In this document: positions 52,213 through 61,778 of the stretch, piece by piece | Layout of the letters: the number at the start of each line of letters is the position of its first letter | Numbering within the stretch: the first letter of the stretch is position 1 | DNA from: an uncultured Catenibacterium sp. | GTDB lineage: Bacteria > Bacillota_I > Bacilli_A > Erysipelotrichales > Coprobacillaceae | Direction: 5' to 3' (one strand) | Length of the DNA stretch: 64,000 bases | Assembly (NCBI RefSeq): GCF_934754625.1 | Contig: NZ_CAKVIU010000001.1 | The notes under the pieces: model-generated | What the model was told of the DNA's origin: nothing | Database searches by the model: none | The model's input: only the letters and a program-made list of their open reading frames with translations | Made by a program: the position numbers and the translations under genes

Positions 52213-52240
52213 AAAAAGACTTCAATTGAAGTCTTTTTTA
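52213..52240. terminator. Bidirectional terminator between the AKR gene and the ABC operon
   Basis: aaaagacttcaattgaagtctttttt. Confidence 0.65.
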
Positions 52241-54352
52241 ACGGATGTTATGTTTTGATATCATCTTTTGAATGATTACAGGTATAAAGAATTCTATCAC
52301 AAATGCGGAAGCATAGAATAATGCAATATGAATTATTGTAATAGGCATGATTAATGGAATAATCATCATCTTTATTGTGAAAATCATAATTACTTCTAGA
52401 AGAATCCATACAAATGTACCTAATATTAATGCGTTTTTCAAGTATGTGCGATAGAAGCTGTGATCTATTCTCTTAGTTGTTAAACCCATGTTATAGAGAT
52501 AATCTCTTGTCTGTTTTTCTTCTCTTAAAATGAGATACTTAAGGTAAAAATAGAAACCATACAACAATATAAAGACAACTGCAATGAATTCTATTAATAC
52601 TTTCTGATTGTTGGTGATAAGAGAATTGATTGCATCATTATCTACAAATGCACCCTCTACCTTAAAACCTAGTTTTTCTAATTCATTCTTAACCTGATTG
52701 ATATTCTTAAGACTATCTACTCTTAATGTATAAGCATCTGGACGCCATGGTGTTTTCATGATGATATCATCTACATCATTCATAGTATAATTTTCAGGAA
52801 GAACATTTTCAATTTTTACATAACCTTTTTCACTATGAGGATCCTCTATATTATAAATAACAACACTTTCTTTGACTTTAAAAGCTTCCATATATGGTGT
52901 AATACAGTCTCTAGGAATGTAAACATACGCATCTCCTGTGCCAACACTATTTGTACTTATAGCTGATCCTGGTTTTAAAATTCCTCTCACAGGCAGGTTC
53001 ATATAAACAAGTTTTACACAAGGTGTGTTGATATCGATCCACTCATCACCATCAGATGATGTTCCCACTTGAGAAATACCAGAAGCATTATAAACAGGTA
53101 TTGGAACCCATAATCCTATTTTTAACTTCTTGATATTAATATCCTCTAGTCTAAGGTTATTTTCTTCTAAGAAAGCTTCCATTTTTTCGTTGCTTAAATA
53201 GACACCTTTATTATCAGCATGTTTAATAGTGATGTTTGTATAATCATCCCTACTATCATAAGTTTGAAGCATAAAGATGGATGAACTACCATTCATATGA
53301 CCATCAGATAGTGATATCTGATCATAGTTATTTTCTGTTGCACCATTCATATCATCCGTCCATTCTGAGAAGGTGCTATAGTGAACATCATATCTCCATG
53401 TAAGGCGTTCTATGTGACTGACACTTTTAATCTTATTGTAATCCTGTTGACTCAGAGGTGTTTCTCCAGAATAGTATGTATAATAATCATTCTTATATTT
53501 TTCTTTGTAGACAACAAGGTCTCTAGAAGCAACAGAATTAATTTTGTCTTCATAAGAAGCACTATATGTTCCATAAATATTATAACTATAAGCACATATA
53601 ATCATTGTGAAAGCAACAAGTATATTCATTACTGTTCTGAAAGTACGATGCGAAAAACGAATATCCATGTTTTTATCTTTCATGATAGGTGCTTTTATTA
53701 AACTCTTCTCTTTGGATAGATCTCTATCTATGATTAATGCACCCTCTACTTTATAAAGCGTATCAGCTGCTTGAATCATTCTACTATCATGTGATGCACT
53801 AATCACATAATGTCCTTTATCTGCGTACTCTTTGAGAATATTGATCATTATATTTGCATAACCTGGATCAAGTGCAGCAGTAGGTTCATCTAAGATGAGT
53901 ATTTCAGGCTGTCTTATTAAGGCTAAATAAACGGCAACGCGTGTTTTTTCTCCTCCAGATAAACTTTTAGGATATTTATTTTCAAGAGGTTTTATACCTA
54001 ATTGTTCTTCATAATCAGGAATTCTTTTACATCCTAATTTTTCTAACTGTTTAATATGGCTGCCAATGGTCATTCCTTCTATGAATAAAGGTATCTGGTG
54101 AACATTTGCGAGATGATCATGAATGAATTTCTGTTTATTGTCTTCATCAAGAGTATCAATTCTTTGCCCTTCATAGAGATAAATACAGTCATAAGCAAAT
54201 TGGAAGGCTTTAAGAAATGTGGATTTTCCTGATCCGCTTCTTCCTTTAATAACAGTTAAATGTCCACATTCAGCACGAAATGAAGCATCTTTAAATACAG
54301 TCTTTTTTCCAAAAGACACATTAAGTTGTTTAATTTCAAGCATATTAAACCA
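52238..54352 (-). CDS. MacB-type fused ABC transporter (NBD + FtsX-like permease), member B2
   Basis: N-terminal NBD ([30 protein letters not shown]-loop SHD), then TM1, a ~330-aa extracytoplasmic domain and three C-terminal TMs. Start set at MLEIKQ (GAGGTGG RBS); overlaps the B1 stop by 8 nt. Confidence 0.7.
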
Positions 54353-59824: not shown

Positions 59825-61778
59825 GATCCGTACTCGTTACCATTATTTTATTTGTAATATAGAAGACTAATGTAGTCACAACAGCACTTATTAAACCTAT
59901 GATTATCTTGATTGAATTGTTTACTAACGCAAACTCACTTGATGAGAATAGTCTTAAACAGAAGGAAAGAAGAACAGCTATAAACAGGAATGACGACATA
60001 AACTGTATATCAACCATATGGATGGATTGAATCTGTTTCTCATTTAAATCAAGTTCTCGATATCTTATATATTCTCTTGATTTATTATAGAGGATTAAGA
60101 AAACAACATAAGCAATAAGACCCACAATAGTATAGATGAGAATCATAGTCTTAGTATTCTTAGAATCCTTTTGACGCATCTTTGTGGTTTGTTTGTAATC
60201 ATCGCTCTCTATATAAGTAACGATGTTTGGAGATATCTTATTGAGCCCATTTCTTACCTGATCTACATAACTTGCATTTTCACACTCAACTGCATAAGTT
60301 GCAGGAACATAATCAACAATATGTTCGTTTAGATCTTCATATAAACTAATTGAAACATTAGTTGTACGATATTTATTTATAATAGAGTTCGCAAAGTCAT
60401 TGTTTAAGTAGACTTTAAATTCGTTGTTACCTGTGAAGTCATCCTGATCTTCATTTGATTTGATGACACCATAGATTTTAATAGATACTCTTTTTTTCTG
60501 ATAAACAGGATGTCGTGTAATTACATCATAAGATTTTTTCTGTAATCCATTTTGATCACCATATCGTATAGTGTCATTATATTCTGTAGAACATACAGGT
60601 ACACCTATATCCATTTTCATGGTTACAGGAAAATCTGAATCAGTCAATTCTAACGTTTTCATAAGACCTTCGCTTATGTAATTTTTGTTTTTATTACCAA
60701 ACTGACCCTTTATATAACTTGATACAAAAACGTTGTCATCCGTTGAATATTCTCTTCCCTTGACTGACATATATGCAATTAAATTATCATCCTCATCATT
60801 TCTTGTATCATAATTACGAGTTGGGAACTGATAATAGCTTGTTATACTTTTAACTCCTTTGATCGATTGAATAGATTGTATTTCTTGCGGAGCCATAGAA
60901 AATCCTTGGTCATATTCCATAAATCTATAACCAGAAGGTAATTCGTTTCTTGTAATGTATTCCTTGCCAGTATAGATAATTTTACTAGTCAAGTTATCTA
61001 TCATAGATGCTGTGTTCTTGTTTGTCATATATAACTCTATACCAGAATATAAAGTCATATTGATAATAACTAAACACAACAAAGCATATAAGAGGATGCT
61101 GAACTTTTCTTTCTTACTTTTTACATGTGCAATTCTTTTAGGGGTAAACTCCTGTGTCATTGAGAGAGGTTCGCCATTACTTTCATTATCTTTGATACGA
61201 GTAAATTGAAGATTCTCAATTAAATACTTGATATCCAAATATTCATCAAATTCTTCATCATGAATAGTAAGAATAATAACACGTTTATGACTATATTCTT
61301 TTAATAACTTCATGATTGAATGTTTATCTTCATAATCTACAGAAGATAAAGGTTCATCTAATATAATACAAGGACTATTAGAATAAACACTTAAGGCTAT
61401 CATTATTCTCTTCTTTTCACCCAATGAACAAGAATCATATTTCTGTGATAAGCTGGCTTTAATGTTTAAATTCTTGAATAGTTCATCTATTGTATTTTGA
61501 TCGTGCTCTCTATTGTATATAGATTCTATTAATTCAAATTGTTGCGCAATAGTAAGGTCTTTTTTTAATAATGCATCCTGGTTTCCATAGAATATAGAAG
61601 TGGCAGTATTCACCATAGAGTCTAGATGAATCTGTTTAGATATAATTTTTAAAAAAGTGGTTTTTCCACAGCCACTCTCACCTGCAATACCTATAATACC
61701 AATAGAAGGAGTAATGAAATTGGCTCCTTCGAAGAGTATTCTATTAGTTTTGTATGTGAAATTATTTAATTCAATCAT
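59817..61778 (-). CDS. MacB-type fused ABC transporter, member A1 (degenerate ABC signature)
   Basis: Walker A GESGCGKTT, Walker B ILDEP, H-loop IHD, but signature CSLGEKKRIMIA instead of LSGGQ. TM1 + ~290-aa extracytoplasmic domain + C-terminal TMs. Overlaps A2 by 8 nt. Confidence 0.65.
   Translation of the reverse strand: MIELNNFTYKTNRILFEGANFITPSIGIIGIAGESGCGKTTFLKIISKQIHLDSMVNTATSIFYGNQDALLKKDLTIAQQFELIESIYNREHDQNTIDELFKNLNIKASLSQKYDSCSLGEKKRIMIALSVYSNSPCIILDEPLSSVDYEDKHSIMKLLKEYSHKRVIILTIHDEEFDEYLDIKYLIENLQFTRIKDNESNGEPLSMTQEFTPKRIAHVKSKKEKFSILLYALLCLVIINMTLYSGIELYMTNKNTASMIDNLTSKIIYTGKEYITRNELPSGYRFMEYDQGFSMAPQEIQSIQSIKGVKSITSYYQFPTRNYDTRNDEDDNLIAYMSVKGREYSTDDNVFVSSYIKGQFGNKNKNYISEGLMKTLELTDSDFPVTMKMDIGVPVCSTEYNDTIRYGDQNGLQKKSYDVITRHPVYQKKRVSIKIYGVIKSNEDQDDFTGNNEFKVYLNNDFANSIINKYRTTNVSISLYEDLNEHIVDYVPATYAVECENASYVDQVRNGLNKISPNIVTYIESDDYKQTTKMRQKDSKNTKTMILIYTIVGLIAYVVFLILYNKSREYIRYRELDLNEKQIQSIHMVDIQFMSSFLFIAVLLSFCLRLFSSSEFALVNNSIKIIIGLISAVVTTLVFYITNKIMVTSTDHD

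Follow-up and report, generated by a model that had tools for sequence, protein, structure and literature searches.

A strain-variable candidate bacteriocin and immunity island with fused MacB-type ABC half-transporters in a Catenibacterium gut bacterium

Gene organization of the locus

The stretch of DNA analyzed here, referred to as the window, comprises 64,000 nucleotides from an uncultured Catenibacterium sp., and the region under study lies between 52.2 and 61.8 kb. This region contains four genes for ATP-binding cassette (ABC) transporters (A1, A2, B1, and B2), two genes for proteins with a Sec signal (s127 and s251), and one gene for a short peptide with two transmembrane (TM) segments (s55). 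An earlier note, made from the letters of the DNA, had described these genes as a single candidate secreted-toxin locus. All seven open reading frames (ORFs) are present in the ORF listing at the coordinates first noted, with the exception of the start of B2. The four fusions of an ABC ATPase with a permease, the two Sec-signal proteins, and the 55-aa two-TM peptide are borne out by the ORFs, by the Pfam family PF00005, and by hydropathy. The features of the region are as follows.

A1, 59817-61778, minus strand: 653 aa; fused ABC ATPase and 4-TM permease; signature variant CSLGE; B1-like
A2, 58163-59824, minus strand: 553 aa; fused ABC ATPase and 4-TM permease; VSGGE signature; 8-nt overlap with A1
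Predicted terminator hairpin, 58044-58078, no strand assigned: GC-rich, with A and T runs on either side; fold of -15.1 kcal/mol
s55, 57802-57969, plus strand: 55-aa two-TM peptide; candidate immunity protein for s251
s251, 57043-57798, plus strand: 251 aa, Sec signal; candidate membrane-acting toxin
s127/s251 divergent intergenic region, 56581-57042, no strand assigned: cassette-swap zone among population variants
s127, 56197-56580, minus strand: 127 aa, Sec signal; candidate protein bacteriocin; first gene of the core triad
Stem-loop of 10 bp, 56167-56189, minus strand: between the s127 stop and the B1 start; putative attenuator or mRNA stabilizer
B1, 54345-56144, minus strand: 599 aa; fused ABC ATPase and 4-TM MacB/FtsX-like permease; signature variant LSLGE
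B2, 52238-54343, minus strand: 701 aa from the ATG at 54343; fused ABC ATPase and 4-TM MacB/FtsX-like permease; canonical LSGGE

The earlier note had reported 8-nt overlaps within both transporter pairs. For A1 and A2 the overlap is indeed 8 nt (ATGATTGA), but for B1 and B2 the claim does not hold: position 54352 is a TGG codon and not a start codon. The likely start of B2 is the ATG at 54343 (MLEIK..., with GAGGTG upstream), 1 nt past the B1 stop, and the resulting 701-aa form is also the choice of metagenome gene callers. An alternative ATG at 54358 would give a 14-nt overlap with B1.

Between the two pairs, s127 and s251 are divergently transcribed, both with an AXA-type signal peptide, and s55 is attached to s251, its start lying 3 nt past the s251 stop; this part of the first description is correct. 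The hairpin at 58044-58078 parts the convergent units s251-s55 and A1-A2, and from its composition and fold it is taken to be a bidirectional terminator. The stem-loop between s127 and B1 is predicted by RNA folding to have an energy of -15.5 kcal/mol and a z-score of -3.1. As stated previously, a regulator, an enzyme for ribosomally synthesized and post-translationally modified peptides (RiPPs), a C39 peptidase, and a membrane-fusion protein are all absent from 52.2-61.8 kb according to the ORF list, Pfam, and NCBIfam. The s127/s251 intergenic region also contains an imperfect 17-nt direct repeat at 56767-56806 (CATTACTTATGATAGTT / CATCACTTATGTTATTT) with a spacing of 23 nt. This repeat was considered as a LytTR-type box and rejected, as the candidate promoters are too distant.

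The s127-B1-B2 triad in related loci

The first description of the region was that of one locus built of four transporters around two secreted proteins, arranged by duplication. Comparison with related loci does not support it, since only s127, B1, and B2 are conserved as a unit. In every locus long enough to show them, an s127-family gene is accompanied by one B1-type and one B2-type gene. In Catenibacterium sp. UMGS270 (locus L020), the corresponding proteins s126, B1', and B2' are 60, 64, and 56% identical to those of the window; a narrower s127 alignment, used as the query for related loci, led to this one genome. Two further loci have an s127-family gene with B1- and B2-type genes, one on a contig with scaffold gaps (L006) and one on a long-read contig with many split genes (L008). 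A 251-aa ORF of L008 was rejected as an s251 homologue: it is unrelated, and its equal length is coincidental. The identity to B1 and B2 is 42 and 48% in L013, and 30 and 27% (the latter over the full length) in L018, where the order of the two pump genes is swapped. A B2-type gene with 39-44% identity is found in L016/L017 (44% in L017). Hairpins of differing sequence occupy the same position after the candidate toxin gene in L013, L018, and L020. Neither the A pair nor s251 is present in the triad loci L006, L008, L013, L016/L017, L018, and L020.

The synteny of s127, B1, and B2 is thus held at approximately 28-60% identity across different genomic contexts, and its strictness argues against a chance adjacency of s127 and the B pumps. 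Conservation of gene order, a check proposed in the earlier note, is found for the triad (L006, L008, L013, L018, and L020, with the B2-type gene in L016/L017) but not for the linkage of s251/s55 or A1/A2 to it. On this comparison, the succession of s127, hairpin, B1, and B2 appears to be the sole conserved unit of the region. The proposed duplication around two secreted proteins fails because s251 with s55, and A1/A2, occur independently of the rest. The arrangement is better described as a juxtaposition of cassettes.

In unrelated metagenomic loci the triad persists at identities as low as 28-42%, and four of these lineages have it beside LytTR regulators or AgrB, which are typical of quorum sensing. 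LytTR response regulators adjoin it in L013 and L016, while in L015 (66-762) an AgrB gene and a 47-aa cysteine-free ORF, possibly an AgrD-like precursor, lie directly 5' of the s127-family gene. A 90-aa protein (P0154) reads as the N-terminus of AgrB fused to the C-terminus of an s127-family protein and appears to be a chimera of the two.

UMGS270 carries its s126-B1'-B2' genes (approximately 60% identity; L020 9585-14224) as a second triad at a site that is empty in the window (15686-16225). The flanks of this site are 95-97% identical between the window and UMGS270, and the window has there a 128-aa XRE-type helix-turn-helix protein with a C-terminal TM segment (15831-16217). UMGS270 appears to hold both a type II locus (described below) and the second triad, about 45 kb apart, assuming that L028 and L020 are one 69,175-bp contig colinear with the window. 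A second strain-variable region was noticed at 3975-9716 of the window, a 5.7-kb cassette that is absent in UMGS270 between otherwise colinear flanks. Judged by eye, its genes encode a phosphotransferase system (PTS) EIIBC protein, a glycoside hydrolase family 4 (GH4) 6-phospho-glucosidase-like protein, an EIIA protein, and two RpiR-type regulators.

The secreted protein s127

The mature form of s127 has approximately 102 aa, a mass of about 11.3 kDa, and an isoelectric point (pI) of 9.7. Its family comprises 20 proteins in a set of 5.8 billion proteins and 15 cluster representatives in an exhaustive search of 1.84 billion proteins. All members have an AXA signal peptide, and the mature proteins are uniformly small (about 11 kDa), rich in Ser, Thr, and Gly, and cationic, with a pI of 9.3-10 and a net charge of +5.5 to +11.5. 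No Pfam or NCBIfam match to s127 was obtained at E<=1, hence no enzyme domain is recognized. Comparison of the s127 profile with PDB sequences gave nothing meaningful, and PHROGs gave no match. The weak alignments to antibody heavy-chain variable (VH)-like sequences in the PDB profile searches of s127 and s251 were dismissed as chance. In a plasmid collection s127 is unmatched. No remnant of an s127 gene lies upstream of A1, and when all family members were compared with the window by tblastn, the known gene alone was returned.

Structure prediction had been called for in the earlier note. The AlphaFold (AF2) model of s127 is all-beta and confident, with a predicted local distance difference test (pLDDT) score of 85 and a predicted template modeling (pTM) score of 0.72. 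The outcome depended on the alignment: close homologues alone gave a pLDDT of 52, and that model was discarded, while the addition of distant members raised the value to 85. A fold search of the model against the PDB returned no close fold and did not recover the lactococcin 972 (Lcn972) structure.

The four fused ABC transporters

All four transporters have the Pfam domain ABC_tran (PF00005) at their N-terminus, with E values from 6e-16 to 3e-27. In an alignment, the residues of the Walker A, Q-loop, signature, Walker B, and H-loop motifs are invariant across A1, A2, B1, and B2. The S-L-G-E variant of the signature is common to A1 and B1, and A2 and B2 have the canonical S-G-G-E. By Kyte-Doolittle hydropathy alone, each protein has a first TM segment (TM1) at approximately residues 226-263, an extracytoplasmic stretch of approximately 180-325 aa, and then three C-terminal TM segments. 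The paralogues are highly diverged: their ATPase domains are 25-34% identical, and the similarity of the permeases is barely detectable. A1 resembles B1, A2 resembles B2, and the gene order is the same in both pairs.

Family models were of limited use for the permease halves. The NCBIfam search of these halves was empty, Pfam gave no FtsX or MacB_PCD match for A1 and B2, and neither TIGR01654 nor DUF1430 matched any window permease in NCBIfam and Pfam. A profile made from nine permease halves, four from the window and five from related loci, matches the solved MacB-type permease YtrF (9o9x_C) at E=7.5e-5, and the match spans TM1, the extracytoplasmic domain, and TM2/3. The same profile also matches BceB-type PsdB (E=0.026) and LolC (E of about 1). 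When the B1 permease half was used in a protein search, the best 120 matches listed were all more than 93% identical, and in the plasmid collection it is unmatched.

Among the NCBIfam models, the ABC model of Lcn972-type bacteriocin loci (TIGR03608) is the top match for A2, B1, and B2, with 110-133 bits against a cut-off of 254.85. For A1 this model is second (67 bits), after an ABC-F model. Models of DevA, LolD, FtsE, and MacB are also among the better matches for A2, B1, and B2, all far under their curated cut-offs; the FtsE model (TIGR02673) scores 57-116 bits against 264.85, and LolD scores 47-120 bits against 307.75.

Because the permease profile matches YtrF, PsdB, and LolC, and in view of the ATPase-model scores, the four proteins are assigned as fused MacB/FtsX-type (type VII) ABC half-transporters, an assignment that draws on topology and profile evidence. 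The view that they are MacB/FtsX-type half-transporters in two-gene pairs, already expressed in the earlier note, is supported by the YtrF match, but the Pfam families named there for this purpose (FtsX, MacB_PCD, and DUF1430) stay below threshold, and the assignment is less secure than was first suggested. FtsEX and LolCDE were rejected as identities of the pumps, as the equivalog scores are far below the cut-offs and the genes are accessory and polymorphic in the species. The secreted proteins, for their part, match no characterized non-toxic family, so that neither of the outcomes named in the earlier note as refuting its reading has arisen. BceAB was also rejected: a 10-TM BceB, a separate BceA, and a BceRS two-component system would be expected, whereas a fused 4-TM protein is seen and the island has no two-component system. 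No BceRS-like two-component system or YtrA-type repressor is found next to the pumps; the nearest histidine kinase and response regulator sit beyond lipo324 and a lactamase_B gene. Since one B1-type and one B2-type protein are encoded per related locus, B1 and B2 probably form a heterodimer with asymmetric ATP sites.

The s251-s55 cassette

In the protein s251, the N-terminal part is variable and the C-terminal domain (about 110 aa) is conserved and cationic, with an Ala/Gly-rich hydrophobic helical segment at residues ~163-193. Homologues of s251 are few: the protein collection contains three, and a weak match was obtained on a plasmid. Each is directly trailed by a small ORF with two or three TM segments, homologous or analogous to s55, and ABC genes are absent nearby. 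The contexts of these homologues differ. In L009 the gene adjoins nrdD-like and lar genes, in L011 it lies in an ArdC-like/Toprim context resembling a conjugative element, and on a Clostridioides plasmid it is found with a small TM ORF and no ABC genes. For s251, the PDB profile search gave nothing meaningful, and PHROGs, a viral contig scan, Pfam, and NCBIfam gave no match. The distribution suggests that s251 and s55 form an independent cassette of a candidate toxin and a candidate immunity protein.

In some strains, a different set of genes takes the place of this cassette (L026 11394-12473; L021 5765-6844). It encodes a DUF2599 protein of 116 aa (Pfam E=6e-17), a membrane-anchored thioredoxin-like protein of 126 aa with a CxxC motif, and a TM protein of 89 aa, and a truncated s55 remnant adjoins it. 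This set looks like another cassette of toxin, accessory, and immunity genes.

Variation among strains and the flanks of the island

A search of metagenomes anchored on A1 yielded 38 relatives of A1/A2, and the window proteins were mapped onto these 38 loci. The best-matching segment is 85-97% identical, and at least 91% identical in 36 of the 38; because of this identity, the relatives are regarded as members of the same species. The arrangements recovered include the following.

Type I (window arrangement): A1 A2, s55 s251, s127 B1 B2; L047, with L001-L005 from a separate search
Type II: A1 A2, an 80-aa m94-like TM ORF, B1 B2, without s127, s251, and s55; 10 loci, with B1 and B2 uninterrupted in 8 of the 10
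Type III: an s55 remnant and 89-aa TM, thioredoxin-like CxxC, and DUF2599 proteins in place of s251/s55; 8 loci
A-only: A1/A2 beside the flanking genes; 5 loci

Loci identical to the window arrangement occur in many metagenomes. In addition, L021 is a rearranged variant that combines the s251/s55 cassette, a partial s127-like gene of 78% identity, the DUF2599 cassette, and a transposon insertion. A1/A2 are present in all strain variants recovered in this A1-anchored search, with no cognate secreted protein, and most variants have them without s251. The region is hypervariable in Catenibacterium metagenomes, and taken together, the sequences suggest that it is a recombination hot spot in which cassettes have been juxtaposed.

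The island is bounded by a lone tRNA-Glu gene on one side and by a tRNA cluster just past the other end of the window. The space upstream of A1 is occupied by a gene for a small membrane protein (m94), its frameshifted copy, and a terminator.

tRNA-Glu(UUC), 50715-50790, minus strand: 1.4 kb from the B2 end of the island
m94, 62335-62619, minus strand: small 3-TM membrane protein; perfect sigma-70 promoter TTGACA-16-TATAAT; no database match

On the far flank, many strains have a Val-Thr-Tyr-Gly-Asn-Glu-Gly cluster that includes a second tRNA-Glu of the same orientation (L037 6012-6087, 15717-15792). In a strain of the window type (L001), the far-flank cluster contains only Val-Thr-Tyr-Gly. 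It is possible that the flanking tRNA-Glu copies act as a substrate for recombination. The second, frameshifted copy of m94 lies at approximately 62040-62310 and is followed by the terminator hairpin at 62010-62046. Type II strains have a paralogue of m94 between A2 and B1 (L031 5958-6200), and m94 may be another immunity-type protein.

Elsewhere in the window, two T-box leaders on the plus strand (20833-21068 and 41398-41603; Rfam, 114 and 131 bits) are unrelated to the island. At 47508-48458, the ORF list shows a lipoprotein-like ORF in which EEAKKLEEQKK repeats form a long run ahead of an apparent N-acetylmuramoyl-L-alanine amidase-type domain.

Interpretation and alternative explanations

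The favored interpretation, held at a probability of about 0.55, is that the region is a strain-variable bacteriocin and immunity island of a Catenibacterium mitsuokai-like gut bacterium, in which three independent modules lie between two tRNA loci. It builds on gene anatomy, domain content, conserved synteny, the quorum-sensing neighbors of relatives, and population polymorphism. The island is read in this way because s127 is a small cationic Sec-secreted protein without an enzymatic domain, because its gene opens an operon that also encodes a dedicated ABC machine, and because an attenuator-like hairpin stands between the candidate toxin gene and the pump genes. Further reasons are that quorum-sensing regulators adjoin the relatives, and that producer, pump-only, and null genotypes exist within one species.

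In the first module, s127 would be exported by Sec, cleaved after VYA, and released as a cationic beta-sheet protein of about 11 kDa, whose site of action would be the envelope of rival strains. B1 and B2 would form a heterodimeric type VII (MacB/FtsX-like) ABC machine whose ATP hydrolysis and large extracytoplasmic domains keep the toxin off the membrane or cell-wall target of the producer itself. Such self-immunity by mechanotransmission, as proposed for Lcn972 orf2/orf3, YknXYZ, and BceAB, is suggested here on account of the logic of Lcn972 loci and of the protection from peptides by MacB-type systems described in the literature. The hairpin after s127 may serve as an attenuator that keeps toxin mRNA in excess of pump mRNA. 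In the second module, s251 would be a separate secreted, membrane-active toxin and s55 its two-TM immunity protein, both replaceable by other cassettes. In the third module, A1/A2 would be a second heterodimeric pump with no local toxin, probably an orphan immunity or resistance pump.

Several points weigh against this interpretation. Because A1 served as the anchor of the survey, the genotype frequencies are biased, and some of the missing or interrupted genes may be assembly artefacts. No LytTR or Agr genes were found in the 64-kb window, that is, the quorum-sensing regulator of the relatives is absent here. The Pfam matches that bear on the family assignment of the pumps are sub-threshold: FtsX (PF02687) is matched by B1 at E=0.003 and by the L018 orthologue at 2e-4, and MacB_PCD (PF12704) by A2 at E=0.0036, all below the gathering score, while DUF1430 appears in one orthologue at a sub-threshold E=0.13. 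Finally, pumps that are retained where s127 is missing are also consistent with a role in general resistance.

This last point leads to a different explanation, in which the four transporters are general pumps for resistance to antimicrobial peptides or cell-wall antibiotics, of the YtrEF, BceAB, or YknYZ kind, and the secreted proteins are unrelated neighbors or accessory binding proteins. It would account for the presence of A1/A2 in all variants without a cognate secreted protein and for the type II strains that retain B1B2 without s127, and, among solved structures, the permease profile comes closest to YtrF, whose operon is induced by lipid II-cycle inhibitors. However, the order s127-B1-B2 is kept at 28-60% identity in different contexts, which is beyond chance adjacency, the pumps have no BceRS-like system or YtrA-type repressor beside them, and the B module is itself accessory. 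General resistance is therefore considered improbable. A slightly higher, though still low, probability is given to the view that s127 is a non-toxic client or partner of B1B2, which would release, fold, or activate it for the envelope, adhesion, or signaling of the producer, in the manner of lipoprotein extraction by LolCDE or the activation of PcsB, CwlO, and EnvC by FtsEX. MacB-type machines commonly have extracytoplasmic protein partners (PMC5985334), the pairing of the s127 and B1B2 genes is strict, and s127 bears no similarity to known toxins. On the other hand, s127 lacks a hydrolase or other enzymatic domain, and the pumps are intact where it is missing. Within a single species, the triad is accessory and its distribution is patchy and polymorphic, unlike that of a housekeeping envelope function, and this argues against a housekeeping role in general. 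The conserved high positive charge of the s127 family, as well as its Agr/LytTR association, is more typical of secreted weapons.

Two further explanations are rated lower still. B1B2 could be mainly a device for the secretion or maturation of s127, for example its release from the membrane or wall after Sec export; MacB exports STII and AS-48EFGH has been proposed to act in bacteriocin export (PMC5985334), and even in Lcn972 loci it is unverified what the B and C genes do (PMC11796350). Against this, the Sec signal peptide of s127 is complete, its AXA cleavage site is conserved, and eight loci retain uninterrupted B1 and B2 with no s127 to export. A purely secretory role is hence very doubtful, as the pumps remain intact without their supposed substrate. 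It is just as hard to see the region as one integrated system, with the two pump pairs and the two secreted proteins working together, such as A1A2 for s251 and B1B2 for s127. The genes are juxtaposed, with identical loci in many metagenomes, and the two pairs mirror each other in subunit type and gene order. However, s251 with s55 is found three times elsewhere without nearby ABC genes, A1A2 lack s251 in most variants, and the triads in L020, L013, and L018 have neither the A pair nor s251. This is the least probable of the explanations considered.

A broader reading of the bacteriocin and immunity island is put forward tentatively, at somewhat less than even odds. The s127 family would be an unrecognized class of Sec-secreted, cationic beta-sheet bacteriocins of about 11 kDa in gut Firmicutes, and a dedicated fused heterodimeric MacB-type machine would strip the toxin from its envelope target. 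Polymorphism at two chromosomal sites would drive strain replacement in the human gut, and s251/s55 would be a second new family of toxin and immunity proteins.

Significance

What is new here is the toxin-candidate family and the two distinct, fully fused half-transporters; no concept is overturned. If s127 is a toxin, its family of unmodified protein bacteriocins would be new, and so would its fold. The system would then offer a clean genetic pairing of one toxin and one heterodimeric MacB-type pump, with which type VII immunity from outside the membrane could be studied. Even for lactococcin 972, the way in which such ABC machines confer immunity is still untested (PMC11796350). Should s127 prove to be non-toxic, its strict pairing with the pump would still make it a new extracytoplasmic client of MacB-type mechanotransmission. 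Catenibacterium, a prevalent commensal of the human gut, is seldom the subject of genetic studies, and the presence/absence pattern within the species provides a marker set for strain competition in metagenomes. The findings are relevant to the fields of bacteriocins, ABC transporters, and gut-strain ecology.

Comparison with known systems

The cassette of s251 and s55 can be compared with the bacteriocin-immunity regions (BIR) of bacteria, such as the pneumococcal blp BIR. In both, a two-gene unit is swapped between strains in a hypervariable region. In contrast to the blp BIR cassettes, s251 is a Sec-dependent protein of 228 aa and not a double-glycine-leader peptide, a C39 exporter is lacking, and s251 has no homology to any described bacteriocin.

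As in MacB, each pump protein joins an ATPase at its N-terminus to a permease of four TM segments, of which TM1 and TM2 are separated by a large extracytoplasmic domain. The matches of the permease profile to YtrF, PsdB, and LolC place them near the type VII superfamily, which includes MacB, LolCDE, FtsEX, YknYZ, YtrEF, HrtAB, BceAB, and AS-48EFGH. Members of this group often act on extracytoplasmic protein partners, as in the export of the periplasmic enterotoxin STII by MacB, and AS-48EFGH has been proposed in bacteriocin export (PMC5985334). MacB-type systems have also been implicated in protection from endogenous or exogenous peptides, including YknXYZ against SDP, AS-48EFGH, and BceAB (PMC5985334). 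Unlike MacB, YknYZ, and BceAB, the pumps described here lack an adaptor (MacA or YknX) and a BceRS partner. While MacB is a fused homodimer and LolCE an unfused heterodimer, B1/B2 are fused and apparently heterodimeric, as the two subunit types are always co-encoded.

The closest parallel in organization is provided by Lcn972 loci, to which the earlier note had already drawn attention, represented by lcn972-orf2-orf3 of pBL1 and the pneumococcal scbABC (streptococcin B) genes. Lcn972-like loci are three-gene operons with Sec export of the bacteriocin, in which the downstream genes are presumed, though unverified, to serve immunity or transport (PMC11796350, PMC4055356); the verification is lacking for both the B and the C gene (PMC11796350). 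ComE/ComR control has been described for some of these loci, as has natural deletion of the toxin gene (PMC11796350, PMC4055356). The pattern of producer, immune-only, and null strains seen in Catenibacterium agrees with one reported for the pneumococcal Lcn972-like scb and blp loci (PMC11796350).

The analogy holds for operon logic and fails for family membership in every sequence test. s127 has no PF09683 or TIGR01653 match, and its mature form has about 102 aa in comparison with 66 aa for Lcn972. Membership in the Lcn972 family was rejected, as hhalign of the family profile with authentic Lcn972, the sequence of which was verified in pBL1, aligns the signal peptide only, with a probability of 2%. 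The transporters differ as well: Lcn972 loci encode one DUF1430 membrane protein of about 650 aa and a separate ATPase, in place of two different fused half-transporters. The permease profile gives no significant match to pBL1 orf2 (hhalign probability 4.4%), B1 is 28% identical to pBL1 orf3, and the TIGR03608 cut-off of 254.85 bits is reached neither by A2, B1, and B2 (110-133) nor by A1 (67). The similarities concern the order and behavior of the genes. In both systems, the gene for an unmodified, beta-rich protein with a Sec signal comes first and ABC-type genes come after it; some lineages have quorum-sensing control, to judge for the triads from the regulator genes adjoining L013, L015, and L016; variants without the bacteriocin gene retain the downstream genes, as type II strains do; and TIGR03608 ranks top for the ATPase domains of A2, B1, and B2 and second for that of A1. 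By this analogy, the s127-B1-B2 triad would share the operon logic of Lcn972 loci while carrying an unrelated family of candidate toxins.

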